A stretch of DNA of 64,000 bases from an uncultured Clostridia bacterium (GCA_944372095.1 CALVYG010000001.1:26036-90035), one strand, 5' to 3'. Counted from the stretch's first letter, positions 48,666 to 62,874 are shown. A program made the numbers and translations. Notes: generated by a model from the letters alone, not told the origin.

Positions 48666-50573
48666 TTAAATTCCCGATTCGAGCAATGCTTTCAAATCGG
48701 ATATTTTATTAAGCAGCTCCTTTCCTTTATCGGTATCCGCAACCGTCAGTCTGCGTCTTGTCTGCTCAAAAACCGTCACATCCGAATGTATATCCGCGCA
48801 TTTTCTTACCGCCTCTTCTTTCGAACTGAACGGTTCGTGCGCGGAAAGGCGTAATCCGTAAGAATTGTAAATCAAAGTATATCCCGCTATACCCGTGGTT
48901 TTCTGATATGCGCGGCAGAATCCCCCGTCTATAACGATAAGTTTCCCTTCCGCTCTTAACGGTGATTCTCCGTCTTTTGCCTTGACCGGAATATGTCCGT
49001 TTATTATATGCGTCTGCTCGCCCTGAACTCCGAAATCCGCAAGTATTTTTTCACATACTTCCCTTTGTTTCGTATATTCGTAACACGGATTTTTACGTTC
49101 GACTCCGTATTCTTTCGGAAGATATACTCTTTCAAACGTAGCTATTTTATCCCGCCCGAAAAGCGGAGAAAGTCTGCCGCACCACAAATACCATAAAAAG
49201 TCAAGGTCGTAATCGTCCTTAACCCCCGTAAATCTGTTTGCATACGCCCGTCTTACAATCTTTTCGCAGGCGTCAAAATACGCCTTCCCCGAAAACGTTC
49301 CGCACCTTAATTTCTGTTCGGCATAACTCCCGTCTTCGTTCAGCGGCACGCACCCGTGATATAACAAATTTCCGTTGACCACCTTATACAGTCCGCCGTT
49401 GCGCATCAGATAATCAATATGTTTCTGCAACTTCTCACTTGTCGCAAAAGTCCTTATAAGATGTTCCATAACTGCTTTTTCGGAATCTGAAAACTCAATT
49501 TCCGAATACGGAGCTTTGAAATCGTAATCGTAAAACACTTTCCCGTCGGGCGCTGTGAACGAACCGTTTTTTCTGTCAAGACGCGCAAGCATTATTCTGT
49601 CGTTCATTCCGTAATCCGGATTTCTCGATATAATTTCCGCTTCCGCTTTCTGCATCATAAAGAATATGGCTTTACGCATACGCGCGTAATTTTTTCTTTC
49701 TCTTTCCGATAAATCGTTTTTTTGCGGGGCGAATCTTTCGTCGTAATCGTAATTTTTTCTCGCAAACTCTTCCAACCGCCTCAAAGATATTCCGTATCCG
49801 TCCTCGATTGCTTCAACCGAACCCGCTTTAAGGGCGATATAAATAACGCTCGCTATGCAAGCGGCATTACCTAGTCCCGCGCCTATCCATTGAATATCGT
49901 GGTTTCCCCACTGAATATCGACGTGGTCGTGCTGTAACAGTAAATCCATTATATAATCGGGGTGCTCGCCTCTGTCGAATATATCTCCGATTATATGTAA
50001 GTTCGCTACCGCAAGTTCTTTTATGGCGTCGCAAAGCGACTGTATAAACGCGGGCGCACGTTTTAACGCTATTATGTTTTTATATACGCCTTCGCAGAAT
50101 TTTTCATATTCGAACCCTTCTCTGCGCGCGTTCACCAGTTCGTTTATAATGTATCTGAACTCGGGCTGTACCGCTTTTACCACTTTACTTCTTGTATATT
50201 TTGACGATACGCGTATCAATATTTTTACAAGTTTTTCGATATAGTATTCAAACTTCCCGTCGCCTATATCCCTGCGTTCTTCCCAAAGTTCTATCGTCTC
50301 TTTCGGATAGCTTATAAGCGACGCTATATGCGCGCATTCTTTTTCGCTCAGTTCGTCTTTGTACAGCAAATCGACTTTTTCTCTTATTACTCCCGAACAG
50401 GTATTGAGCAAATGACAGAACGCTTCGTATTCTCCGTGAATATCGCTTACGAAATGCTCCGTTCCTTTCGGCATACTGAGAATTGCTTGCAGATTTATTA
50501 TTTCCGCCGCCGCAGCTTCCTGCGTCGGATACTCTTTCTTTAATAGAGTAAGATACTTCTGTTCGTCAGCCAT
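48666..50573 (-). CDS. fbp: Fructose-1,6-bisphosphatase class 3
   Basis: KGTEHFVSDIHGE, GDIFDRG, QWGNHD, HIINGHIPV, VIDGGF. Confidence 0.95.
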   Translation of the reverse strand: MADEQKYLTLLKKEYPTQEAAAAEIINLQAILSMPKGTEHFVSDIHGEYEAFCHLLNTCSGVIREKVDLLYKDELSEKECAHIASLISYPKETIELWEERRDIGDGKFEYYIEKLVKILIRVSSKYTRSKVVKAVQPEFRYIINELVNARREGFEYEKFCEGVYKNIIALKRAPAFIQSLCDAIKELAVANLHIIGDIFDRGEHPDYIMDLLLQHDHVDIQWGNHDIQWIGAGLGNAACIASVIYIALKAGSVEAIEDGYGISLRRLEEFARKNYDYDERFAPQKNDLSERERKNYARMRKAIFFMMQKAEAEIISRNPDYGMNDRIMLARLDRKNGSFTAPDGKVFYDYDFKAPYSEIEFSDSEKAVMEHLIRTFATSEKLQKHIDYLMRNGGLYKVVNGNLLYHGCVPLNEDGSYAEQKLRCGTFSGKAYFDACEKIVRRAYANRFTGVKDDYDLDFLWYLWCGRLSPLFGRDKIATFERVYLPKEYGVERKNPCYEYTKQREVCEKILADFGVQGEQTHIINGHIPVKAKDGESPLRAEGKLIVIDGGFCRAYQKTTGIAGYTLIYNSYGLRLSAHEPFSSKEEAVRKCADIHSDVTVFEQTRRRLTVADTDKGKELLNKISDLKALLESGI

Positions 50574-50594: not shown

Positions 50595-51320
50595 TTACAC
50601 AATTTCCATAAAAAGCCCTACTAAAAACAGCGCGAGCGCAGTCAACGCTATAAACAACGCTATCAGCAGAATTTTTATACCCAGCTTTTTTCCGTCTTTG
50701 AGTTCGGCGGACGACAGAATTTCTTTTTCTTCCTCTTCCGACGTTTCCGAAAATCCTTCCGGCAAATCATTTTCGGGATAAAGCGCATAATACGCCGTGG
50801 CGTCCGGGTGGTCGATTATTTTTCTTTCCGTATCTTTATTTTTGAGAACGCCGCACAGCATAACGACATCTCCGGAAGCCCCTGCCGTCATCAACGCAAA
50901 AATCGCCGTCTGCATAAGTCCGCCGGTTATCATACATACGATAAAAGGAATAATCCCCGTAATAATCAGCGGTATAATCAGAATTGCGCAATAAGCTTTT
51001 CCGTCAACGGGTTTTTTGCAATGACAATAAAACAAACCTTCTTTGAGCTTAACGCCGAATTCAATATCTTCTTTTTTACATTTGCCGAAAACAATCGCCG
51101 CAAGCGCGTGCAGTCCTTCGTGCAGAATTACGCCGACAAGCACCAAAGCAACCGACAACCCGACGTCGCCGGCAACGGAACCCGTCGCAAGAAACTCTGC
51201 TTTCGTTCCCCAGAAGTTTACCGACAATCCGATAATCAGCAACACGAAAAATACCGTAACCGCACATACGTTTATTTTCCCTATACCGAAAACTCTTAAT
51301 TTCTTTTTATACCCTTCCAT
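50595..51320 (-). CDS. Membrane zincin-like peptidase (DUF3267-like)
   Basis: ILHEGLH, YCHC, P-x5-G, GASGD, DHP. Confidence 0.75.
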   Translation of the reverse strand: MEGYKKKLRVFGIGKINVCAVTVFFVLLIIGLSVNFWGTKAEFLATGSVAGDVGLSVALVLVGVILHEGLHALAAIVFGKCKKEDIEFGVKLKEGLFYCHCKKPVDGKAYCAILIIPLIITGIIPFIVCMITGGLMQTAIFALMTAGASGDVVMLCGVLKNKDTERKIIDHPDATAYYALYPENDLPEGFSETSEEEEKEILSSAELKDGKKLGIKILLIALFIALTALALFLVGLFMEIV

Positions 51321-54131
51321 TTATTCCTGTCCGTTATTGTTTTCGACAAAAAATGCAAATACGTAATTATCGTCGTCGCGCCCTTCGAAAATCAAAATTT
51401 TCATATTATTGTTAATATCGTCAACCGTAAACCCGACACCGACGCCCGTCATAGCGTTAACTATACCGTCCGCCAGAATGTTCTGCCCGCCTTCGCCGCT
51501 GTTTTCAAGTATAAGGTATTTCGGCGCGCAGAAATCCAACATCAGTTCGTTATCTCCGTATATCTCTTTCAGTTCAACGTATTTTGCAAATATTGCCGTT
51601 AATTCTTCTTCATTTTCGGCATAATAATCGTCCGTTTCGCCGTCGTCAATCAACACGTCGCCGTAAATGTCGTAAACTGTCTGCGCGACGTATTTCCCTT
51701 TCCATTTGTCGTTGTAAACATATCCGCTTTTATTGACAAGCATATCGTCGGTCGTAAGTATAAACGTATGATTGATAACTTCTATTCCCGTTCCGTCTTT
51801 CGTTTTTGAAAGAGTGTTTGCGGCGGTACAATCCACTACCATCCATTCTCTTAATCCGTCGCCGTTCACGTCGATATAAACTTTGTTCCACGCATGGTTT
51901 ACTCCGTTCATCGTTCCGTCTACGCGAACCGATTTAATTCCTTCTATCGCGCAAAGCGCAGTAAAAGCTTTACTTATACCGTCGCATACCGCTATTTTAT
52001 CGATTATTGCTCCTTCGAGATAAAAACATCTGTATGAATATAATTCGTCCGCCATTTCGGGGTTATTGAATATTTCGTAAGTTTCGTTATCGTACGCAAC
52101 GGTTTTTACAAGATATTCCGCTATCGCAATTACTTTATCTTTTTCGCTGAACCCGTTTCCGATAATATTGCGCAGAATATTTTTCATTTCCGAATAAACC
52201 TCCTGCGCCGTCGTTCCGTCCTTAACGTCGGGTTTATAACCGTTTTCAAGCGCAAACACAAGCTGCTCGGTATTGCTGACCGTCATAACGGCTTTAACGT
52301 GTTCTATCGCAAAATCGTTAAATCCGCGCTCTCTGTTTCCCTCTTTTGCAAATCCGATAAAATCAATCTGCTCATATGTTCCGTCTATGCTCGTTTTCGT
52401 AGGTTCGTCTTTATAATCGCCGAACGTTACGGTAACTTTGTTTTCGGTTTCGCTACACTTTACAGAGATACTACACGAAACGGATATTTCTCCTGCCGCC
52501 GTAATATAAAAACTCTCTTCCTCGTCTTCGTCGAGTCCGTATACCACCGCGGTCGCGCTGCTTATCCTGTTAAACATAAGAAAATCGAGAAATCTCGGAT
52601 ATTCGTTTTTCGTCACGTAATAAACGTCATCGAAAGGCTCGAACCTCCAATATGAATCTTTCGTATAAAGAGCGTAAAGAGTTTTATTCCCCGTAAGCCC
52701 CGTAAACCCGTCAAAACTTTGGGTATACTCTTCGTCGAAATACCAACCGCAAAATTTGTATCCGCCCGGAACAACGGCGTCCGCGAGCGTTTTCGTTGAT
52801 TCTATCGTATAATACGTCGGATTGGACGCGGGATTTTCCGCCGCACCCGTATAATAGGTTATATTGTATTTCACGGGGAAAAATACGGCTTCAAGCGTAA
52901 TATTCCCGTTAATGACGGAATTGAAATCAAATTCTTTTTCGGTACTTTCTTCCGCCCAGTATCCGAACGTATATCCCGTTTTTTCTTCTTCGTAAACATA
53001 AGGCGTTTCTATCACGTCTCCTCGCGAAATATTATCCACGTTTACGCTTTCTCCGTTTACTTTATATGTAACGGTTACGTTGCTTTCATCGTATTGACGG
53101 ATAATTATACCGTAAGTTTCGGACTTATTTCCTGCCTCCGCCGTAACAGTCAGCTCGTAACTGTATTCTTTTATGCCGCTTGTTCCGATATTTGCGTTTA
53201 TTTCCGCATTGTTTCCTATTGTCTGTCCGTCCGAATTCCTGATTTTAACCGAACTTCCCTCGCTGAATACAAAATACCTCGGAATATTGATTGTCTGAGC
53301 GCTGCTGTCGGTGTATATTACAAAGTAATTGCCTTCTTTTATACTCAGTCCTTTACGCACTCTCATTTCCGCCAGAAGACAGGCATACCTTGCGTAAAAA
53401 GTTTTATTTCCGCTGTCTCCGTCAAGTTCGGATACTTTTTCTCCCGAAAAATCCGGTTCGGTATACCAACCGACAAATTCATAATTGTCCTTTACGGGTT
53501 TTGTAAGAGTTATCATATCGGTTATACGGTAAGTCGTTTCCGGCGTAACTCCTTCGAATTTTCCGCCGTTAAGTTCGTATTTTATCGTATAATCGGCATA
53601 ATCCCACCCGACGTATATTTCCGTTTCTGCCGTTACGGGCGTATCGAGATTATACACTTTCGTACATTCTTCGTCCTGATACCAGCCCTTAAAAATATAT
53701 CCGTCGCTTTTCGGCGCGCTTATTTCGATTCTTTCACCGTAATTTACTTTTATTATGTCGTTTCCGTTATGTTTGTCTATAATTTTAACGTCAAACTGCG
53801 CCGTTTTATATATCGGATAGATATTGACCACGCTTGCTGCTTTTTCCCCGGGCACGACAGGATTTTTCCCTTCCTCGTCAAGATACCAGCCGACAAATTC
53901 ATACCCCGTTTTCACAGGTTCTTTGGTCGGTATTTTAAGCCTGCCCGACGAATCCACAAAGTCCGATGCCGTATAGTCTCCGTCGACGTATAAATTTACC
54001 ATTATCGTAACTTTATCGGTTTTATCCGCAGAATTGTTTCCTGTCTCTCCGCCGAATAAACTGCACGCGCTCAGAATTGCGCCGATTGCAATTATAAGTA
54101 TTATTACGGATATTATTTTTCTTATTTTCAT
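51321..54131 (-). CDS. Lipoprotein with InlB B-repeat-like domains and C-terminal transglutaminase-like domain
   Basis: Lipobox LSAC; five GY-x-F-x-GW-type repeats; AVCDG, HAWNKV, VDCT triad. Confidence 0.88.
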   Translation of the reverse strand: MKIRKIISVIILIIAIGAILSACSLFGGETGNNSADKTDKVTIMVNLYVDGDYTASDFVDSSGRLKIPTKEPVKTGYEFVGWYLDEEGKNPVVPGEKAASVVNIYPIYKTAQFDVKIIDKHNGNDIIKVNYGERIEISAPKSDGYIFKGWYQDEECTKVYNLDTPVTAETEIYVGWDYADYTIKYELNGGKFEGVTPETTYRITDMITLTKPVKDNYEFVGWYTEPDFSGEKVSELDGDSGNKTFYARYACLLAEMRVRKGLSIKEGNYFVIYTDSSAQTINIPRYFVFSEGSSVKIRNSDGQTIGNNAEINANIGTSGIKEYSYELTVTAEAGNKSETYGIIIRQYDESNVTVTYKVNGESVNVDNISRGDVIETPYVYEEEKTGYTFGYWAEESTEKEFDFNSVINGNITLEAVFFPVKYNITYYTGAAENPASNPTYYTIESTKTLADAVVPGGYKFCGWYFDEEYTQSFDGFTGLTGNKTLYALYTKDSYWRFEPFDDVYYVTKNEYPRFLDFLMFNRISSATAVVYGLDEDEEESFYITAAGEISVSCSISVKCSETENKVTVTFGDYKDEPTKTSIDGTYEQIDFIGFAKEGNRERGFNDFAIEHVKAVMTVSNTEQLVFALENGYKPDVKDGTTAQEVYSEMKNILRNIIGNGFSEKDKVIAIAEYLVKTVAYDNETYEIFNNPEMADELYSYRCFYLEGAIIDKIAVCDGISKAFTALCAIEGIKSVRVDGTMNGVNHAWNKVYIDVNGDGLREWMVVDCTAANTLSKTKDGTGIEVINHTFILTTDDMLVNKSGYVYNDKWKGKYVAQTVYDIYGDVLIDDGETDDYYAENEEELTAIFAKYVELKEIYGDNELMLDFCAPKYLILENSGEGGQNILADGIVNAMTGVGVGFTVDDINNNMKILIFEGRDDDNYVFAFFVENNNGQE

Positions 54132-54273: not shown

Positions 54274-54498
54274 TTATTTCTTTTTCTCTATAAGGCTGAC
54301 CGCATCGCGCACCGTCTTGATTTCGGCAATTTCATCGTCTTCGAAACTTACTCCGAATTCCTTTTCCATCGCTATAAGCATCTGCACGATATCGAGACTG
54401 TCCGCGCCGAGGTCGTCGACGAATTTCGATTCTTCGTTTATTTCACTCGCGTCGATATAGAGTTGTTCTGCTATAAGGTTCTTAATTTTATCAAGCAT
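54274..54498 (-). CDS. acpP: Acyl carrier protein
   Basis: DDLGADSLD phosphopantetheine motif; SD AAGGAG. Confidence 0.95.
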   Translation of the reverse strand: MLDKIKNLIAEQLYIDASEINEESKFVDDLGADSLDIVQMLIAMEKEFGVSFEDDEIAEIKTVRDAVSLIEKKK

Positions 54499-54516: not shown

Positions 54517-55371
54517 TTATTTTATTACATACGTCTGCTTGCTTGCGACATAATCGAGTACCTGGATTTTCTTATTTATAAACAGGGGAAGAATCATCAT
54601 AACCGCAAGTATTCCCGCTATGACGTAAGCGCCTATCGCTATTTCGAACATATCTTTCTTTATGAACATTATCGCAATGTCGGCTATGGCTAACAACAAT
54701 GCTATAAGCGTCCATACGTTGAGTTTCCCGAGCGGTTTCATTTTTGCGAGCTTTACAAGCGCGTTAATCATTATAATTACGCAGAACAGCATTATTACAG
54801 CATAAAGTAAAGGTACGATTACGCTGAATATAACGCTCATATCTCCCGCAAGCAGATTGTTTATTGCGTCGGATTCGGTAAACAGCCAAAGCAGGCTGTC
54901 AATCGCCGTACTGGTGCCGTAAACAGGCAACAGACTTGCCACAATTATAACCGCAACCGCAAACAATGCCACAAACGCGCTTATTCCCGCATAAGCTTTC
55001 GGTTTATAAACGGGTTCCGGAGCCGCCGTATGTTCGACCGGCGGACGGTAATTGGGGTCATATTGCACCAGCGGCTGATTCTGCGTAGTATACGGAACCA
55101 TCGCTATCGGCTGCACTATCGGCGGAAGCTGTACTATCTGCGACGGCATAGGGATTGCGTTATTCATATTCGCTCCTATCGGCGTCGGATTGGTAAAACT
55201 CGTCGTTTCTTTGGCATAGTAAAACGCTCCGTCTTCTCCGAGACTCGGTCTGTTCGGGTCTTCGCTTACTCCTGCCGGCGCTTCGCGTTCGTCCACGGGC
55301 ACCCATTTCCCGGATACTCCGTTCAGCGTTCCGCTGTGTATCTGCTGGTTTACTTCGTAAGGGTTTGCCAT
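54517..55371 (-). CDS. Hypothetical four-TM protein with Pro/Gln-rich N-terminus
   Basis: QLPPIVQPIAMVPYTTQNQP motif; four hydrophobic helices; SD AGGAG. Confidence 0.85.
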   Translation of the reverse strand: MANPYEVNQQIHSGTLNGVSGKWVPVDEREAPAGVSEDPNRPSLGEDGAFYYAKETTSFTNPTPIGANMNNAIPMPSQIVQLPPIVQPIAMVPYTTQNQPLVQYDPNYRPPVEHTAAPEPVYKPKAYAGISAFVALFAVAVIIVASLLPVYGTSTAIDSLLWLFTESDAINNLLAGDMSVIFSVIVPLLYAVIMLFCVIIMINALVKLAKMKPLGKLNVWTLIALLLAIADIAIMFIKKDMFEIAIGAYVIAGILAVMMILPLFINKKIQVLDYVASKQTYVIK

Positions 55372-55390
55372 AATTTCTTCTCCTGATAAT

Positions 55391-55876
55391 TTATTTCGTT
55401 ATGTTAAGCGGTATTTTTATCGCTTCCGTCTGTATCGTTTTCGAAGGTTTCGGTATCGGTATCGGTCCGGCTCCCGGCAAAGTCGTATAACTTACCGGCG
55501 TTTCAAATACCCTGCCGTATTCGTCGCTCGTGTAATACTTGGGTATTCCGAGTTGCGCCATTGCATCCGTAGCATAGCATGAACGGATAACCTCTTCCAC
55601 GCCTCTCGACGCATAACACGGCGCTTTCGGCGCAGGTATTTTCCCGCAGCTTCTGTCTACGTATACCGTCGGCAGTTCCGGCTCAGCCATACTCGCGTCA
55701 CGCAACGTTATTGCTCTCATATACGCGTCTTTGGGTCTCTTCCCTCCGCATTTGGGACATCTTTTCGGCATTAACGATATATCCCATCCGCATTGAGGAC
55801 AATAATAATGCAATATATTATTATCTTCGTCCACTCCGGTTTTCAACGCCCTTCTGATTCTCTTGTCCATAGCCAC
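55391..55876 (-). CDS. Hypothetical soluble zinc-ribbon, Pro-rich protein
   Basis: CPQCG-x8-CPKCGGKRP; start may be ATG 55870. Confidence 0.8.
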   Translation of the reverse strand: MAMDKRIRRALKTGVDEDNNILHYYCPQCGWDISLMPKRCPKCGGKRPKDAYMRAITLRDASMAEPELPTVYVDRSCGKIPAPKAPCYASRGVEEVIRSCYATDAMAQLGIPKYYTSDEYGRVFETPVSYTTLPGAGPIPIPKPSKTIQTEAIKIPLNITK

Positions 55877-55908
55877 TCCTGTTTAATTTTTGTTTCTTTC
55901 ATCTATGT

Positions 55909-56757
55909 TTATACTCTTTGTTTCTTTCCGCGCGCGCACACGGTCAATATAAATATTATCAACGACAGCGCCGCAAGAATTATCAATCCGTATGTTTCAA
56001 ATTCTATTTTCACAACCGTAAACGCAACGACGGCTGCTCCCGCGTTCAATAAAAACGTCAATGCCGCTATTATTTTAACGAATACCGACGTTCTTCCCGC
56101 TACAGTTATCAGCGAAAACAACGTCGTAATAACCGTAAATACTGCCGACGCGGCAATCAATACGGACAAAATTGACGTTCCCTGCGTTACATCGAACCCT
56201 CCTCCGGTTATATCCGTTATCAATTGACGTATTATTCCGAATGCCGCCTGTCCGTCATAAAGGTAATTGTAATTAAACCCTTCAATCATTCCGCCGAAAT
56301 CGAATAAAAGCGCGATATAAACTATTCCAAGAATTGCGCTTATTATTGCCATAACGTTGGTTTTCCTTCCCGATTTAACGGAATTCTGAGACAAAACTTC
56401 CGATTCGGCTGTTCTTTGCACTCTTGACGCCGTGTTTGAACGCAAATACGACGCGTCTCCTTCGGGAAGAGCATAGCTTTCTTCTTCGTCGAACAAATCT
56501 TCATAATAAGTTGCAGGCAACTCTTCTTCTCTGTTTTTTTCTCCCTCGGGATTATAGTAATACATAGGTTGCTGAGTCGAAACGTAAGGAACCACTACCA
56601 ACGGCTGAATAAGCGGAGTAGTTTTTACCGAATCGACAGACGTCTGAGAGGAAACAAGTTCTTCTTTCGGCGCAAGGGAAACCGCGGGCGCAGGCGCGCT
56701 CTTCTCGGCAGGCGATGTCTGCCACCAGTTTATGTACTTTATTCTTCTAGCGTCCAT
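55909..56757 (-). CDS. Hypothetical four-TM protein
   Basis: PLIQPLVVVPYVSTQQP motif; LYDGQ loop motif; four TM. Confidence 0.85.
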   Translation of the reverse strand: MDARRIKYINWWQTSPAEKSAPAPAVSLAPKEELVSSQTSVDSVKTTPLIQPLVVVPYVSTQQPMYYYNPEGEKNREEELPATYYEDLFDEEESYALPEGDASYLRSNTASRVQRTAESEVLSQNSVKSGRKTNVMAIISAILGIVYIALLFDFGGMIEGFNYNYLYDGQAAFGIIRQLITDITGGGFDVTQGTSILSVLIAASAVFTVITTLFSLITVAGRTSVFVKIIAALTFLLNAGAAVVAFTVVKIEFETYGLIILAALSLIIFILTVCARGKKQRV

Positions 56758-56763
56758 ACTTTT

Positions 56764-57414
56764 CTACCCGTTCTCCTTGACACTTTTTTTTCCTGTTCCG
56801 GCAATGGCGCTTACCAGAAACGCAAGAGCGGAGGCGGCTACCGCCGCACCCATCGGCACTGCCGAACTTTTCGTAATTCCTATTATTGCCGCGCACATCA
56901 TCAGCGCAAATGCCGCAAACGTTCCTATTATTACGGCAAATCCCATTCCTTCTTTCCTTAACCTTGTCAAAGGCCACACCAATCCGAAACAAATTTCCGC
57001 AACAACCGCAAGCAGACACGCAACAGCCGCAACAGTATCCGCCGCGTCGGCGTATTTTCCGCCGAAAAGCAGTTTTACAACGGTAAGCGCGCTCTGTCCG
57101 TCATATAATGCAAACGCCGATGCCGCACTGCCTTCGAGTTTTACCGTACTGCCTATGACTATCCATACGGTAAACAATAAAGCGCATATTGCAGTCAATA
57201 TTGCCGCAACGTTTATCTTTTTATTTTCCTTGGCGGACTGCACGTCTTCCGCCGCTGCAACTTCCTCTCCCGCCGAAGTGTATTTCACGGGAAGAACAAC
57301 TCCGTTTTCCTTAACGTAACGCTTAAACTGCGGCAATTCGAGATAATCCTTATACGAAACGAATGCGCTTATTTCCGTAACGTCATCGAAATCGTCGATA
57401 TTTATCTCTCTCAT
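56764..57414 (-). CDS. Hypothetical four-TM protein
   Basis: YKDYLELP N-terminal motif; LYDGQ loop motif; four TM. Confidence 0.85.
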   Translation of the reverse strand: MREINIDDFDDVTEISAFVSYKDYLELPQFKRYVKENGVVLPVKYTSAGEEVAAAEDVQSAKENKKINVAAILTAICALLFTVWIVIGSTVKLEGSAASAFALYDGQSALTVVKLLFGGKYADAADTVAAVACLLAVVAEICFGLVWPLTRLRKEGMGFAVIIGTFAAFALMMCAAIIGITKSSAVPMGAAVAASALAFLVSAIAGTGKKSVKENG

Positions 57415-58320
57415 TTATTCCTCGCCCTTGCCTTTCTCCGCAGTTTTATCTTTACCGTAGGCAACACAGGTACAGATAAACGTTATTACAGGGACTATAA
57501 TCATAAGATAAAGTCCGTATCCTGCGGTAAAATCACCGCTTCCGGTAAAGAAACCGCCTATTTCCGACGCCTGCGTTCCGCTTATTGCCAGTCCTCCGAC
57601 AAGCACTATCAAAGAACACAGAAACATAATTATACTGAGAAATCCGAGACGGGCTTTCGCATATGTACCGTCTTCTCTCTTCTTCCCCGCAACGCCCGCT
57701 ATCGCCGCTATAAGCATTATCAAAGCGAAAACTATGTACAACGCAATCGCAACGGGAACGATATATCCGGCGAAAGAGCTCAGAAAATCCTCTCCGAACA
57801 GTTCGAAACATTTTCCGAATTCAGCAGGAATACTGCCCGTTTCTATTCCGAATTTCTCGGACAGAAAACTCATAAACGGGTCGGTCATCGGGAAATTCGT
57901 TTCGACAACGTAATTATAATTATATATGGATATAACGTTCTTGAACGGAACGGTAAACAATCCGCATACGGCAAAGAACAGAATTGCAACGACCAATATT
58001 ATCGGTATTACGAGAAAAAGAGTTCTTTTTTTCGTATAAGCGTTGGTTCTTGACGGTTTCTGAACTTTCTGTGGCTTCTCTGCCGTTTCCGGGAAATCGT
58101 ATGACGGCGCTTCGGAAGGCTCAATCCCGAAAAGCTCCGCTCTGAGGCGGTTCGCCATCTGCTCGACTTCCCCGCGGTAAATCACGCTTCCCTCGTCGTT
58201 ATATACCGAAAAGCTCTGCGGTAAAGTCATATTATATCTGTTATACTGGTTTTCCGAAAGCCGTACGGGAACTTTTCCGTCCGTTCCGGTTCCGTTACCG
58301 GTTTTTTTCACTGCACTCAT
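57415..58320 (-). CDS. Hypothetical four-TM protein
   Basis: GFLSII...GG...TAGYGLY...AYGK; likely start MSAVKK at 58320. Confidence 0.85.
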   Translation of the reverse strand: MSAVKKTGNGTGTDGKVPVRLSENQYNRYNMTLPQSFSVYNDEGSVIYRGEVEQMANRLRAELFGIEPSEAPSYDFPETAEKPQKVQKPSRTNAYTKKRTLFLVIPIILVVAILFFAVCGLFTVPFKNVISIYNYNYVVETNFPMTDPFMSFLSEKFGIETGSIPAEFGKCFELFGEDFLSSFAGYIVPVAIALYIVFALIMLIAAIAGVAGKKREDGTYAKARLGFLSIIMFLCSLIVLVGGLAISGTQASEIGGFFTGSGDFTAGYGLYLMIIVPVITFICTCVAYGKDKTAEKGKGEE

Positions 58321-58350
58321 TCTGCCCTCTCCCTGCAATCAGTTTCAAAA

Positions 58351-58647
58351 TCAATCCCAATCGTCAAAGTCGTCAAAATCGTCATCGAAATCGTCGCTCT
58401 TATTGATACTGCTTTCCGCCTGCATAGGCGTCGGAACAAACGATATCGGCTGAATAATCGGAGGAAGCTGAATGGCGTTCATCTGACCGCTCGATACCGG
58501 CAGCGACATACCGTTAAGCGACCCAAAAGACACTCCGGGAAAATACATAGGCTGAGCCGCCGCAGCATTCCTTTCCGCCTCTTCCGTTCTTCTGCGCTCT
58601 TCCGCAAGCCGTGCTTCTTCAAGTTCTCTTTTCTTTTTTCTGGTCAT
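58351..58647 (-). CDS. Hypothetical small soluble protein
   Basis: SD GGGAGG; charged helix, QLPPIIQPISFVP motif, (DDF)n acidic tail. Confidence 0.8.
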   Translation of the reverse strand: MTRKKKRELEEARLAEERRRTEEAERNAAAAQPMYFPGVSFGSLNGMSLPVSSGQMNAIQLPPIIQPISFVPTPMQAESSINKSDDFDDDFDDFDDWD

Positions 58648-58678
58648 TTTTGCCTCCCCGTTATATATCCTTTTACGA

Positions 58679-59863
58679 TTAGCCTCTTCCGCTTCTCGCC
58701 CTCGCGTCGCGCAAGGATTCTCTGTATTCGTACATTATTATCGGCTGCGTGATTTCTCTGCTTCTCAGTTTCTTTTCGAGCAGGAAGAAAGATAAAATCA
58801 ATCCGACAAGCGGCAATGCCACCATTATCAGCAATCCGTATCCTGCCGTAAATCCGCCCGTTCCCGTAACGATACCGATAAGATAATTCACGATATTTCC
58901 GAATTCCATCTTTGCATTTATGTCAACCGTGCAAGCATATCCGCCGATTGCCACAATTAGCGCAAGAATTATCATAATCAGACATTCTATCGACGTGTGA
59001 CGGTATATTCTTCTGTCTCCGGACGCCCAGCATATGAACGTTTTTATCACAAGCGTAAGCGCGAAAATCACATACAGTATTATCGCCGCGGGAAACGCCT
59101 GAATGAGTATTGCCGCAAGATTATCGCTCATACCCGTCTCGACTTTCGATATCTGCATGTCGTACCAAGCCGAATCTCCTATCGTAAGGTCGTAATTGAA
59201 AAGCTTGGCTATGTAAGAAATCCAACCGTAAACGGGGTCGCTGAATTTGTAGTATGTTCCGGTTGCTTCCGAAACAGTCTCTCCGCTTTCGTCTCCGGTT
59301 TCTTCTCCGTCAGCAGTTTCTCCGTCAGCAGTTTCTCCGTCTCCGGTTTCGTCCGTATTTTCTCCGCTTTCGGCGTTTGCGGGAGTTTCCTCTCCGCCGT
59401 TTTCGTCTTCCGTATTTTCGTTATTTTCGTCCTGGTTATCGGCAGGCGTCTGCGCCTTTGCTTCCGTTTCCGCAAATATGGCGGTGTACTGGTCCACCAT
59501 AGGTATTTCCACCGGTATAAAAGACAACGCAACCAGCGCGAGCGCAACAAGGAATACTATTGTCATCAGGAACCCGACGGGTTTCCTGCAAAACTTCATT
59601 TTTTGTATATCCGCGGCAAAACGGTGGTCAACTTCCGGCACTCCCCCGCCCGCAACGGGTCCGCTTGTCTGCGGCGTATAATCGTAATCGCCGTCTCCGT
59701 ATCCCGACAGATACCTGTCGCGTTCGCGCGAATTGGAAATTGCCGCCTGTCGACGTTCGGTAAGCATTGCGCGTCTTTCTTTTGCTTTCCTGCGCTTTGC
59801 CAGTGCCTGCATTTGTTCCTTAGTCAACGGTTTCTTTCCCGAACCCGTTATGTTGTTAGCCAT
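58679..59863 (-). CDS. Hypothetical four-TM protein with acidic loop
   Basis: SD AAGGTGG before ATG 59863 (MANNIT); TAGYGLL; E/D/T-rich loop. Confidence 0.85.
   Translation of the reverse strand: MANNITGSGKKPLTKEQMQALAKRRKAKERRAMLTERRQAAISNSRERDRYLSGYGDGDYDYTPQTSGPVAGGGVPEVDHRFAADIQKMKFCRKPVGFLMTIVFLVALALVALSFIPVEIPMVDQYTAIFAETEAKAQTPADNQDENNENTEDENGGEETPANAESGENTDETGDGETADGETADGEETGDESGETVSEATGTYYKFSDPVYGWISYIAKLFNYDLTIGDSAWYDMQISKVETGMSDNLAAILIQAFPAAIILYVIFALTLVIKTFICWASGDRRIYRHTSIECLIMIILALIVAIGGYACTVDINAKMEFGNIVNYLIGIVTGTGGFTAGYGLLIMVALPLVGLILSFFLLEKKLRSREITQPIIMYEYRESLRDARARSGRG
59303..59341. repeat. In-frame 15-bp tandem repeat (~2.6 copies, GETAD units)
   Basis: TTCTCCGTCAGCAGT x2 plus TTCTCCGTC. 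Confidence 0.85.
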
Positions 59864-59918
59864 ATTCGCCACCTTTTTTATATTTATAGTACAAATATTT
59901 ATAATACTATACGCTACT

Positions 59919-59947
59919 ATTCTAGCATAGCGCTCCGAAAATATCAA
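59919..59947 (-). promoter_or_regulatory. Internal sigma-A promoter of the membrane-protein cluster
   Basis: TTGATA-17 nt-TAGAAT with TGn extension. Confidence 0.65.
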
Positions 59948-60055
59948 TACTTAATTTGTAAAAATTGCATTTTTTTTGGTATTATTTTGTATTTATCCAC
60001 TGCAAACTTTTTCCGTCCGTCAAAAATCTTCCCCATAGGGGAAGAATTGCCTCTT

Positions 60056-60094
60056 AAAACAAACCGACCGACTGTACCGGCAGTCGGTCGGTTT
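60056..60094 (-). terminator. Intrinsic terminator
   Basis: 14-bp stem AAACCGACCGACTG/CAGTCGGTCGGTTT, U-rich tail on the minus strand. Confidence 0.8.
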
Positions 60095-60117
60095 CACGTC
60101 AAGTTTGTTTTTGCCCG

Positions 60118-60978
60118 CTATTTTCTTTTCTTTCCGTACGCGATACAGCTCATTATGAACGTAACCGCCGCGGCTCCGAACATTACGTACAACCCGTATC
60201 CGGCCACCGCCGCTCTTTCCCCGCGCAAGAAGAAATCACCGATTGCGGTTATATCTCCTCCCGTTATGTAAATTCCGCCGATAAGACATATCGCACCGCA
60301 TAAAAGCGCAACTATCGATAAAAATCCGAATTTTCTTTTCTTGTAATATCCGCAGACGGTCCTTTTTTCAAACAACGCATAGGCGGATTTTATAAGCATT
60401 ATCACAAAACATACGGTAAACAGTATCACCGCGCAACTGACCGCATATACGGGTATAAGCGCATACTCGCTTCCTGCATCGGCATAATAAGCAATGTAAT
60501 TACCTTCGCCGTCTTTATCGAGAAGATATTCGAACATAGATACCACCGTATCGATTATACCTACGTCTCCGTCCTCGCTTTCGTATAGCGCTATGCTTTT
60601 ACCTATATCTCCGTTTTCGATTACCCCCATCCCGACAATTACCAGCATCGCAATACTGACCAGCAATATTACCGCTATCGGCAAAATATGTTTGCGAACA
60701 TAATTTTTGCTTGTTTTTACTTGCGTTTGGGGTTCCTTTTCTTGCGCTTTGGTTTCCTTTACCGGCATTTTGGCATTCTTTGCCAGTATCCCTATCTGAG
60801 TTTCGGACAGATAGCCGTTTACCGACATATCTTTTGTCCTCGGCGCACAAAGATAGTCAAAATATAACGGCGCGCCGAACCTCTCTACGCCTGCAAGAAA
60901 CTCCGGGTCCGTCATTTCGTCGAGGGTTTTATTTACTACTTCCGTTTCTTCTTCGAAAGAAGGTTTTTTCTTTGCCAT
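60118..60978 (-). CDS. Hypothetical four-TM protein
   Basis: YFDYLCAP motif; GFLSIV...GG...VAGYGLY...AYGK. Confidence 0.85.
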   Translation of the reverse strand: MAKKKPSFEEETEVVNKTLDEMTDPEFLAGVERFGAPLYFDYLCAPRTKDMSVNGYLSETQIGILAKNAKMPVKETKAQEKEPQTQVKTSKNYVRKHILPIAVILLVSIAMLVIVGMGVIENGDIGKSIALYESEDGDVGIIDTVVSMFEYLLDKDGEGNYIAYYADAGSEYALIPVYAVSCAVILFTVCFVIMLIKSAYALFEKRTVCGYYKKRKFGFLSIVALLCGAICLIGGIYITGGDITAIGDFFLRGERAAVAGYGLYVMFGAAAVTFIMSCIAYGKKRK

Positions 60979-61066
60979 TTATTTTTCTCCCGAAATATTT
61001 TTCTTTAATCGAAAAACATCCGCTTTACCTCGCGGGATAAATACGGATGTCGTTTTTATTCAGTAA

Positions 61067-62734
61067 TCACACGGTTTGCCGCAAACCGGCTTCTTTCTTC
61101 TTTGCTTTTCCCGACAAAACAGCCGCTATTACGGATATGACCAGAACGATAACGGAAGCTATTAACGCAATCAGAATTCCGATACTCGCAAAAACCTCGC
61201 TTGCCGTAACAATATCTCCGATAACTAATCCGCAAATCAATAAAGCCGCACCGATGACACCGACCGCACCGAATATCGGAAACGCCGCATTCGCTTTTCC
61301 CGAAATCAACCCGATAATACCGCACACAAGACAAGCTACCGCGCCGACGCACATCACTATTATTCCTATCGAAGGAAGCAACGCGCCGACTCCGCTATCC
61401 GGTAATATATCCGCAAACGAATTACCTTCTTTTATGAACAGTGAAGTCAGAATATCGATATTGTTTTCACCGGAAACGTAACCGAAAGCCGTAACGGAAT
61501 CAGATAAAAGTACCGTCAAAATCACCGCTATCGTAAGCAAAGCCGCTATTATCGAGCATACCTTTACCGCTCCCGAGCCCTTTATTTGATTTTTTACCTC
61601 TTTTTTTTTACCGGGTTTTACATAAATCTGAGAAGGAGCGTTCCTTTTCTGCTCGGAAGGCATTTCGTCCGGAACAAATCTATATACGGTTTTCGACAAA
61701 CCGTACTGATAAATCGGCTGCTGACTGTTGACATAAGGCACTATCGTAAGCGGTTGAACGTTTCCGCCCGTTACTCCGCCGTAAGTCTGCGCCGCTCCGC
61801 GCCTGCCGTAAAGCAGTTCTCTTTCCGCTTTTATTCTTTCGTCTACCGCTCTTTCTATCGCTTCTCTTTCTACTTTGTATTTCGAATAAGCGTTAATTTC
61901 CGCAATCCTCTTTTCTTCCGCAACCCTGTCCATTGCCGCTCTCGAAATTGCGTCGCGTTCTATTCTAGCACGGTCTTCCGCCGCCTGCTCTCCCGCCACG
62001 ACTTTAAGAACAGCCCTTCTTGCCGCGCTCTTTTCCGCTTCGTCTATCGCGTTGGCTATCGTTTCCTGCGCTTTCTGTTCCGTGCTCTTTCTCTCCGCGG
62101 CAATACGTTCTTCCGCCGCGTTTTCTATTCCCGCCCGTTCCGATATAACGCGTTTCGCCGCGGCGTACAGCACTTTTTCCCTCTCAGAAGCTATCTGCTC
62201 TTCGATTTCGCGGTTCCTGCCGTTTATCGCTTCTTCCGCGCGTAGTTCCGCTGCTTTTACTTTTTCGTCGGCTATTCTTTCCGCTTCTATTATTCTCAGC
62301 ACAGCGTCACGCGCCGTCGTTCTCTTTATGTCGTCGGTTTCCTGTTCAAGCTTCACCGCTTCCTGCGCGAGTATCTGCGCTTTCTCGTCCGCTACTCTGC
62401 TTTCCACTAACCGAACAAGCTGGTCCTGCATAGCTTCCTGTCTGTCCGTTGCGAGTCTCGCCTGTTCTTCGATGTATCTGTCCTTTATGCTGTCGGCATT
62501 TCTCATCTTGCCCATCGCATTCAGGTATTCGCTTCTCGGACGTCTTTTTCCGCATCTTACGCAATTCGGCGACGATATTGCATTCACCTTTCCGCAATAC
62601 TCGCATATATACGAAAGCTGGTCCAAACTGACGTTCACTTCCATTTCTTCCGCCGCCGTCTTTTCGGCAGTTTTCTCTTCTGCCGTAATTCCGGTGTTTT
62701 CGTAGGTGTTGTCGGTCGTTGTTGTATCTACCAT
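61067..62734 (-). CDS. Hypothetical zinc-ribbon + long coiled-coil + four-TM protein
   Basis: SD AAGGAG before ATG 62734 (MVDTT); CEYCG-x8-CVRCGKRRP; ~230 aa A/E/R-rich helix; VQPLTIVPYVNSQQP; four TM. Confidence 0.85.
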   Translation of the reverse strand: MVDTTTTDNTYENTGITAEEKTAEKTAAEEMEVNVSLDQLSYICEYCGKVNAISSPNCVRCGKRRPRSEYLNAMGKMRNADSIKDRYIEEQARLATDRQEAMQDQLVRLVESRVADEKAQILAQEAVKLEQETDDIKRTTARDAVLRIIEAERIADEKVKAAELRAEEAINGRNREIEEQIASEREKVLYAAAKRVISERAGIENAAEERIAAERKSTEQKAQETIANAIDEAEKSAARRAVLKVVAGEQAAEDRARIERDAISRAAMDRVAEEKRIAEINAYSKYKVEREAIERAVDERIKAERELLYGRRGAAQTYGGVTGGNVQPLTIVPYVNSQQPIYQYGLSKTVYRFVPDEMPSEQKRNAPSQIYVKPGKKKEVKNQIKGSGAVKVCSIIAALLTIAVILTVLLSDSVTAFGYVSGENNIDILTSLFIKEGNSFADILPDSGVGALLPSIGIIVMCVGAVACLVCGIIGLISGKANAAFPIFGAVGVIGAALLICGLVIGDIVTASEVFASIGILIALIASVIVLVISVIAAVLSGKAKKKEAGLRQTV

Positions 62735-62845
62735 TGTCGTCTCCTTGCTTTTTCTGCTTTTTCTTTCGGTTTCGGCTTTTTCCCGCCGAACCTTTTTCAC
62801 GCTGAACATTATTGTTCGCGCACGCCTACCTATATACGCTATTTT

Positions 62846-62874
62846 ATTATAAACTTATTTCTTTTTTTTTTCAA
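62846..62874 (-). promoter_or_regulatory. Sigma-A promoter at the head of the cluster, containing an A10 tract
   Basis: TTGAAA-17 nt-TATAAT; T10 on the plus strand at 62862-62871. Confidence 0.7.

Follow-up and report, generated by a model that had tools for sequence, protein, structure and literature searches.

Why should a zinc-ribbon protein, a small soluble protein and several integral membrane proteins, all encoded side by side, share one short proline- and glutamine-rich peptide? The question is raised by a gene cluster at positions 54,517 to 62,809 of a 64,000-nucleotide stretch of DNA from an uncultured Clostridia bacterium (GCA_944372095.1 CALVYG010000001.1:26036-90035), the whole of which is called the window here. 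The cluster consists of nine co-directional open reading frames (ORFs) on the minus strand, flanked by glnS (from 62943) on one side and by the gene for an acyl carrier protein (54274-54498) on the other, and an earlier note on the sequence had pointed to a recurrent peptide in four or five of their products. Judged by its conservation, this motif has a function: no other part of the cluster is nearly as conserved, and the peptide turns up again in both orthologues and paralogues. Not described until now, it is the mark of a multi-gene membrane system that is conserved in a few families of uncultured gut Christensenellales and has no annotation. As to its role, we favor, at a probability of roughly 55%, a cytoplasmic short linear motif, restricted to this clade, that folds on binding and assembles the cluster-encoded proteins into a heteromeric membrane complex. 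Such a complex would be of a new kind.

The cluster and its motif-bearing proteins

The nine ORFs follow one another in the order given here, with the motif copy of p580 placed after its gene:

61067..62809, minus strand: p580, ORF with an AlphaFold model and an orthologue alignment
61700..61792, minus strand: motif copy of p580, the hidden Markov model (HMM) envelope at amino acids (aa) 340-370
60118..60978, minus strand: p286, four-helix membrane paralogue without the motif
58679..59947, minus strand: p422, four-helix membrane paralogue with an acidic low-complexity loop
58351..58647, minus strand: p98, small soluble carrier with a basic helical N-terminus
57415..58338, minus strand: p307, four-helix membrane paralogue without the motif
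56764..57414, minus strand: p216, four-helix membrane paralogue without the motif
55909..56757, minus strand: p282, motif followed by a four-helix membrane domain
55391..55876, minus strand: p161, soluble zinc-ribbon protein with a conserved DEYGR block
54517..55371, minus strand: p284, small N-terminal beta region, extended motif and four-helix membrane domain

Three of these proteins carry full copies. In p284 the extended motif spans aa 67-108 (55048-55173) and contains the string QLPPIVQPIAMVPYTTQNQPLVQY at aa 81-104 (55060-55131). In p282 the motif reads PLIQPLVVVPYVSTQQPMYYY at aa 48-68 (56554-56616), with Q51, P52 and P57 invariant. The largest protein, p580, is built from a zinc ribbon of the form CxxC-x10-CxxC (aa 69-86), a long predicted helix, the motif and a four-helix membrane domain (aa 410-579); its motif string VQPLTIVPYVNSQQPIYQY occupies aa 351-369 (61703-61759), and Q352, V357, P358 and Q368 are invariant among 39 orthologues. 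The copy in p98 is a degenerate half motif, QLPPIIQPISFVPTP, at aa 60-74 (58426-58470), the second half having been lost from this protein in the window's genus. The p161 protein, whose CxxC-x10-CxxC zinc ribbon is paralogous to the zinc-ribbon N-terminus of p580, ends in a degenerate remnant at about aa 134-161 (55394-55477), and its counterparts in distant genera have a full copy in which S replaces the first Q. All five strings of the earlier note are present in minus-strand ORFs and lie at most 3 nucleotides from where it had placed them, the p98 string being about 3 nucleotides off.

The fifth of these strings, ITQPIIMY in p422 (aa 399-406, 58730-58753), had been offered as a weak copy. 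It is better described as the local form of a conserved C-terminal tail, which reads KKVPYSIFDK in most p422 relatives. The heptapeptide pattern G[ST]LNG[MV]S, said to be shared by p98 and p284, is indeed confined to these two proteins in this genome, and it is retained in none of three close p98 orthologues.

In the small soluble proteins of about 60-130 aa, the motif stands between an N-terminus that is basic and helical and an acidic-aromatic tail, which in p98 is DDFDDDFDDFDDWD. The small carriers of distant genera end in tails of like character (D/E with F/Y/W). Alignment with orthologues suggests that three starts lie downstream of those listed: p580 probably begins at M26, which is nearly invariant, p422 probably at M29 (59863), where its orthologues begin, and p307 probably at M7. 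Between its first and second membrane helices p422 has a long acidic insertion in the outer loop (about aa 160-240, rich in D/E/G/T/N). The helix of p580 (aa 92-334) is rich in A/E/R/K, with visibly recurring A-x-R-x-V...AAE-like units, and the p580 relatives of distant genera are far shorter, about 395 aa in total.

One four-helix membrane domain is common to the seven membrane proteins, as found by iterated jackhmmer; the database searched, 1,220 ORFs taken from the loci, is small, and hydrophobic composition can inflate scores in it. Single-pass HMMER searches back part of this paralogy: p282 as query matches p216 (E 9e-4), and a p284-family profile matches the membrane region of p307 (E 2.8e-8) and p422 (E 3.9e-6).

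The motif is longer than first thought and specific to the cluster

The earlier note had written the motif as QP-hydrophobic-VPY-x3-QP. This pattern is real, and its true extent is greater, about 27-40 aa: [IV]Q[LM][TP]P[IV][IV]QP-h-x-h-VP[YF]-x2-Q-x-QP[LM]-x2-[YF], where h is a hydrophobic residue, often preceded by P[VI]P[VI]A-x-P. Its core holds four or five prolines in about 25 residues.

A six-frame translation of the whole 1.81-megabase, 55-contig genome contains the core QP[ILVMF]xxVP[YT] four times and the longer form QP-h-xx-VPY-x3-5-QP-h three times, always in the cluster. Shuffling of residues (n=30) gives the core 0.23 times on average and once at most, and the longer pattern 0 times on average. 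A profile HMM of the motif matches only four ORFs in the genome even at E <= 10, all in the cluster; since the profile includes the window's own copies, the informative part is that nothing else matched. Four core copies against 0.23 by shuffling, with no further profile match, confirm the observation and set it apart from a compositional accident. Pro/Gln-rich composition by itself does not bring the motif along, as only 1 of the 341 P/Q-rich 30-aa windows of the genome contains the core, and that one is from p98. Neither of the outcomes that the earlier note had named as fatal to its reading, lack of conservation in orthologues or equal frequency in unrelated Pro/Gln-rich proteins, is observed.

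Outside the genome, the motif profile finds 218 of 1.84 billion representative proteins at E <= 0.001, and 50 at E <= 1e-10. Four motif strings are absent from 8.4 million full texts, supplements aside, and the profile finds no chain among the PDB sequences at E <= 10.

Domain libraries are nearly silent on the cluster. None of the nine proteins reaches a Pfam cut-off, the only NCBIfam hit among them is a spurious low-complexity match to CobT on the acidic loop of p422, and PADLOC has no match for any of the nine and so gives no sign of a defense system. Of the zinc-ribbon proteins, p161 matches Pfam DZR at 21.3 bits against a cut-off of 27.3, and a p580 profile retrieves from the PDB weak zinc-ribbon rows only (eL40, E 0.009). 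Some motif-bearing relatives do exceed zinc-ribbon cut-offs (P0208, Zn_Ribbon_1, 75.6 bits; a protein of locus L073, 85.3 bits), and zinc ribbons are the only Pfam families that a scan of 142 of the top 150 motif representatives detects (in 17 of 40 and in 0 of 102).

Conservation points to selection on the peptide

Across orthologues the motif stands out from everything around it. The p284 protein has 91 relatives at E <= 0.01, and in an alignment of 27 of them, whose identity to the window protein falls from 82% to 27% with a mean column identity of 35%, residues 81-104 hold 15 of the 20 invariant columns. The same is seen in 99 aligned motif segments at positions outside those that the regular expression used to select them, where Q, P, V and Y persist in 65-92 segments: Q25 is kept in 76, P28 in 66, V30 in 70, Q43 in 89, P44 in 84, L45 in 71 and Y48 in 65.

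The paralogous copies within the window have not been kept alike by their DNA. Identical residues are encoded by the same codon in 4 of 8, 4 of 10 and 4 of 12 cases in the comparisons among the full copies of p284, p282 and p580, and nucleotide identity between the window's copies is 38-58%. These differing codons and low identities indicate that the likeness is held by selection on the peptide and not by recent gene conversion. The aromatic position of VP[YF] has also been compared across paralogues: F co-occurs in several of them in the clade of loci L023-L028 and is found singly elsewhere, in a table that is noisy and whose loci are related.

Distribution across genomes and loci

A scan of species-representative genomes yields 63 loci, all from uncultured or metagenome-binned Christensenellales-like Clostridia, each with one to six motif-bearing ORFs. 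Every match of the regular expression in these loci lies on the strand of the p284 orthologue, within that gene or a few kilobases upstream. A profile survey then covers 74 loci, namely the window, these 63 and 10 from other families. The numbers of loci with zero to six motif-bearing ORFs are 3, 4, 7, 12, 15, 13 and 20, many of the low counts stemming from loci cut by contig ends, and 70 of the 73 loci other than the window have one to six motif-bearing genes. Soluble and membrane carriers occur together in 63 of the 74 loci, membrane carriers only in 7, soluble carriers only in 1 and neither in 3, a membrane carrier being one with at least three membrane helices as called by a crude hydropathy window. 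Cluster DNA is found in gut metagenomes of chicken and other birds.

The reach of the cluster in the order is limited. With p282 as query, matches are found in 22 of 24 other genomes of the genus and in 0 of 16 genomes of other families. The p284-family profile has a match in 33 of 301 genomes sampled from the order; by family (our numbering) they include 13 of 13 genomes of f1, 6 of 6 of f23, ten genomes of f36, 2 of 6 of f19 and 1 of 14 of f9. One locus each from f19 and f9 was fetched, and these contain relatives of the membrane domain without the motif.

The same few modules are joined differently from place to place. Zinc ribbon, helix, motif and membrane domain make up p580; motif and membrane domain make up p282 and p284; the motif occurs alone in the small soluble proteins; and in f36 it is found at the C-terminus of a soluble multi-zinc-ribbon protein. 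In relatives from f23 and f19, zinc ribbon and membrane domain lie within one protein. The f36 version of the cluster is small: after glnS come the multi-zinc-ribbon protein with its C-terminal motif and a pair of four-helix membrane proteins; at least one of the pair bears a variant whose first Q is replaced by V or I. An interpretation of f36 as a single-carrier system, which would have spoken against pairing between motif copies, was dropped when the profile search revealed these second carriers.

Topology and predicted structure

The place of the motif in the chain is fixed. Of 166 membrane carriers, 165 have it on the N-terminal side of the first membrane helix, with a median of 21 residues between motif end and helix, and soluble carriers have it near the C-terminus. 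Signal peptides are absent from the carriers, Lys/Arg-rich segments stand ahead of the first membrane helix, and some carriers are soluble or zinc-ribbon proteins. Together these features place the motif in the cytoplasm, as had been predicted from the sequence.

The motif segments had also been called low-complexity, and the AlphaFold models agree that they are unstructured: their pLDDT (predicted local distance difference test) score is about 40 for residues 63-104 of p284 and 34-49 for residues 336-404 of p580, compared with 84-97 for the membrane domains. No strand is predicted in the motif region of either model. The p580 model consists of a zinc ribbon (residues 66-90), a single uninterrupted helix of 243 residues (92-334), the motif segment and the membrane domain. 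A complex prediction of p282, p216 and p161 with residues 55-125 of p284, run without controls, gave a score of 0.00 (mark 0.32) and speaks neither for nor against binding.

Structure searches leave the fold without a name. Foldseek finds nothing for the p284 model in the PDB at E <= 0.001, the top row being LetAB (E 0.41), followed by TARP and VKOR chains. A wide VIA-align search returns only generic four-helix bundles (Z <= 11.8), so the fold family cannot be named, and a look-up of p284 in the ESM Atlas gives only nameless hypothetical clusters.

What the motif may do

A docking or assembly role is the best reading of these data, and it is well motivated. Four features fit a short linear motif that folds on binding: its extreme conservation within fast-evolving, unstructured linkers, its fixed membrane-adjacent or terminal position, its free recombination with zinc-ribbon and four-helix modules, and the joint presence of soluble and membrane carriers in almost all complete loci. 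On these grounds we take it to be an assembly handle. The parts of the system would be the seven paralogous four-helix membrane proteins, the zinc-ribbon/long-helix proteins and small soluble proteins such as p98. Unfolded when alone, the motif would become extended on binding and would tie soluble carriers to membrane carriers at the inner face of the membrane. This could happen in two ways: either every copy would fit a like site on a partner encoded in the cluster, or the copies would pair with one another.

Several points weigh against this reading. Any binding by the motif, the identity of its partner and the task of the complex are all inferred. No cytoplasmic patch in the cluster proteins is conserved to a degree comparable with the motif, and a dedicated receptor might show one. 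The motif is not docked in cis on the zinc ribbon or on the protein's own membrane domain in the monomer models of p284 and p580. It has decayed in two carriers, p98 and p161, in the window's genus, and thus not every copy is indispensable. Finally, the paralogy of the membrane domains leans partly on the iterated search in a small database, and the tally of soluble and membrane carriers depends on the crude calling of helices.

The lack of a conserved receptor patch within the cluster leaves room for pairing of the copies with one another, and equally for another explanation, in which all carriers dock on one conserved cytoplasmic hub encoded elsewhere (cytoskeletal, division or secretion) and the cluster proteins are its parallel clients or anchors. 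Near-invariant peptides are typical of binding to a slowly evolving hub, and the motif is near-invariant across paralogues and three families. The cluster also lies among housekeeping genes, with glnS upstream in f1 and f36 and acpP downstream, and the genome has FtsZ and SepF, while the FtsA family was not found in an assembly that is 95% complete. A widespread hub, however, would be expected to recruit clients beyond one cluster, and the motif is found only beside four-helix membrane and zinc-ribbon genes, with 0 occurrences elsewhere in the genome and 218 in 1.84 billion proteins. Nor has any candidate hub been identified, none of the matches to FtsZ, SepF, Spo0A and MreB_Mbl being linked to the motif. 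We therefore regard a hub as unlikely. A role of the peptide in polymerization, as put forward in the earlier note, seems less probable again. There, the motif would be a beta-strand through which subunits co-polymerize into a sub-membrane filament or lattice like those of articulins or alveolins. Hydrophobic and polar residues do alternate in it (IVQPIALVPY, PLLQY), and no complete system has fewer than two carriers. The concerted conservation of the copies would follow if all of them had to be compatible with one another, and the 243-residue predicted helix of p580 could serve as a strut. Proline, however, disfavors regular beta-sheets, and a core of about 25 residues with four to five prolines fits an extended docking peptide better. 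No strand appears in either AlphaFold model, and each of the four window proteins matched has a single significant profile stretch instead of a tandem array. Of the earlier proposal the docking or assembly part is thus kept, and the beta-strand co-polymerization is unsupported and improbable.

Much less probable still is that the segment, moderately hydrophobic and adjoining the membrane, serves as an interfacial anchor, inserting its Ile, Val, Leu and Pro residues into the inner leaflet, or as a site of processing or degradation by a membrane protease. Soluble carriers would need a way to reach the membrane, and protease-like genes do lie nearby (two Rce1-like genes in L073, and in the window a DUF3267 putative zincin about 3 kilobases downstream). 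Generic lipid anchors tolerate substitution, though, and here Q, P, V and Y are nearly invariant; the membrane carriers, with four helices already, do not need another anchor; and the protease genes do not stay with the cluster from one family to the next. That the motif is a by-product of chance or composition in Pro/Gln-rich linkers has in its favor only that the segments are low-complexity and unstructured in the models. This origin is refuted by the genome-wide core count and the shuffling (4 observed, 0.23 expected, with 340 of 341 P/Q-rich windows lacking the core), by conservation in orthologues down to 27% overall identity, and by the survey of loci, in which the motif persists across 70 others; the codons, too, differ between paralogues.

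The assembly reading can be carried further, on doubtful ground, to a novel scaffold in which tetraspanin- or claudin-like proteins would form a heteromeric membrane patch or lattice. The motif would then zip onto it a coat made of zinc-ribbon proteins, the p580 strut of about 36 nm and acidic-tailed adaptors. If true, prokaryotes would have their own counterpart to the tetraspanin web of eukaryotes, complete with a separate coat and limited to a few gut Christensenellales families.

Comparison with known systems

Of the described architectures, the LetA module of Proteobacteria comes nearest, a module in which a cytoplasmic zinc ribbon is combined with a tetraspanin-like four-helix membrane domain in one gene or in neighboring genes, and whose fold is grouped with those of TARP and VKOR in the sections of the source that deal with it (PMC13017536). 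The cluster likewise combines zinc ribbons with four-helix membrane domains in one or adjacent genes. Unlike in LetA/PqiA, only one of the seven membrane paralogues, p580, has a zinc ribbon, which lies about 320 residues from the membrane domain, and the sections of the source that describe LetA mention no such motif (PMC13017536). LetA aligns with the p284 model at Z 8.0 in VIA-align (root-mean-square deviation 4.0, 128 aligned residues), and soluble four-helix bundles reach 11.8. The PqiA family (PF04403) matches none of the nine cluster proteins at E <= 0.1 and nothing in the 95%-complete genome, the E. coli control being matched; the p580 profile retrieves no LetA chain from the PDB at E <= 10; and the MCE/MlaD partner (PF02470) has 0 matches in the genome, with four control genomes matched. 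Membership of the LetA/PqiA group is not supported, and the likeness is an architectural lead only.

YdjG of Bacillus subtilis, a zinc-ribbon membrane protein belonging to the pspA-ydjGHI operon, presents a similar picture within the Bacillota, as it stands beside membrane proteins and a long-helix cytoplasmic protein; the passages that describe it contain no mention of such a motif (PMC9239133). None of the nine cluster proteins matched the PspA or band-7 Pfam families, and no sequence relation to YdjG was seen, though none was tested for.

Claudins are four-helix membrane proteins whose C-terminal tails bind PDZ scaffold proteins. Like such scaffolds, the cluster has paralogous, compact four-helix membrane proteins that share a short cytoplasmic peptide; unlike them, it has the motif N-terminal of the first helix, and soluble proteins are also carriers. 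A designed claudin fold, MP20, TARP and claudin-19 align with the membrane domain at Z 9.9, 9.6, 9.2 and 9.1, within the noise range of helical bundles. For Pfam PMP22_Claudin (PF00822) the best match is p307 (E 0.048, 14.0 bits against a cut-off of 26.7), and the other membrane proteins have none. The first outer loop of claudins and PMP22 has a conserved cysteine pair and a Trp-containing signature. That of p284, PVYGTSTAIDSLLWLFTESDAINNLLAGDMS, contains no cysteine and is mostly helical in the model, which has no beta-sheet there.

Articulins and alveolins, the analogy drawn in the earlier note, are soluble skeleton proteins of protists with long tandem arrays of short Val/Pro-rich repeats. 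A Val/Pro-rich peptide and a location at the cytoplasmic face of the membrane are common to both. Here, in contrast, there is a single significant match of about 30 residues in each of the four window proteins, most of the carriers are integral to the membrane, and Gln stands out as much as Val and Pro do; the analogy therefore does not hold. Different proteins are gathered in one structure by the cargo-loading peptides of encapsulins or by the Rubisco-binding motif of pyrenoid proteins, and the motif of the cluster resembles these as one short conserved peptide, disordered or terminal, in unlike soluble and membrane proteins. It differs in that no shell, matrix or receptor gene is identified and the carriers are paralogues and gene neighbors. 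The closest functional analogy would be with four-helix membrane scaffolds that have a short tail motif, and with shared targeting peptides generally.

Neighborhood and transcription signals

Three candidate transcription signals, all consensus matches only, accompany the genes:

62846..62874, minus strand: promoter-like site TTGAAA-17-TATAAT (11 of 12 positions), upstream of p580
60027..60045, minus strand: terminator-like hairpin between p286 and p422
59947-59919, minus strand: second promoter-like site, after the hairpin

The hairpin and promoter-like site between p286 and p422 suggest that the cluster may form two transcription units. The listed TTG start of p422 overlaps the second promoter-like site. 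Pieces of 144-265 nucleotides from two metatranscriptome libraries, almost all at identities of at least 99%, fall on p284, p98/p307, p422 and p580; as assembled contigs, in which DNA carry-over is possible and whose uncovered parts are uninformative, they lend weak support to transcription of these four gene regions.

Directly downstream of the acyl carrier protein gene lies a 936-aa lipoprotein (51321-54131, minus strand) with five Listeria-Bacteroides repeat (Flg_new) stretches and a transglutaminase-like core, which adjoins the cluster in closer relatives only. Next come a membrane protein with five helices that belongs to the putative zincin peptidase family DUF3267 (50595-51320, minus strand) and a Firmicute-type fructose-1,6-bisphosphatase (48666-50573, minus strand). 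In the f36 locus L073, Pfam identifies, after the cluster, a protein of the metallo-beta-lactamase fold and two Rce1-like membrane proteins, which are of the CAAX protease family (L073:4999-7939); gene sizes and helix counts are similar downstream in the f36 loci L072, L074, L075 and L077, the family scan having been made on L073. In a locus of a distant f1 genus, the genes for ribosomal proteins L11 and L1 and rpoB lie downstream of the acyl carrier protein gene (L064:11146-20961), which places the cluster in a core housekeeping neighborhood there. Elsewhere in the window's own genome, FtsZ, SepF and Spo0A are present (contigs C48, C11 and C9), the FtsA family (PF14450) was not found in the assembly, and MreB_Mbl has two weak matches, one of 70 bits in a 608-aa frame and one of 51 bits.

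Significance

Across whole families of uncultured gut Clostridia, a run of seven to nine neighboring genes keeps its order next to housekeeping genes and stands without a family assignment; the only feature that links these genes is the motif. For annotation, the motif's profile retrieves the entire system (218 of 1.84 billion proteins) where domain libraries have nothing to offer, and the invariant QP...VPY...QP residues provide a precise experimental handle. If the motif assembles a heteromeric complex of four-helix membrane proteins, LetA would be joined by a second bacterial system with tetraspanin-like domains at its base, the first such system in monoderm Bacillota. The complex would then also offer a clean model for the way in which short linear motifs organize bacterial membrane complexes.

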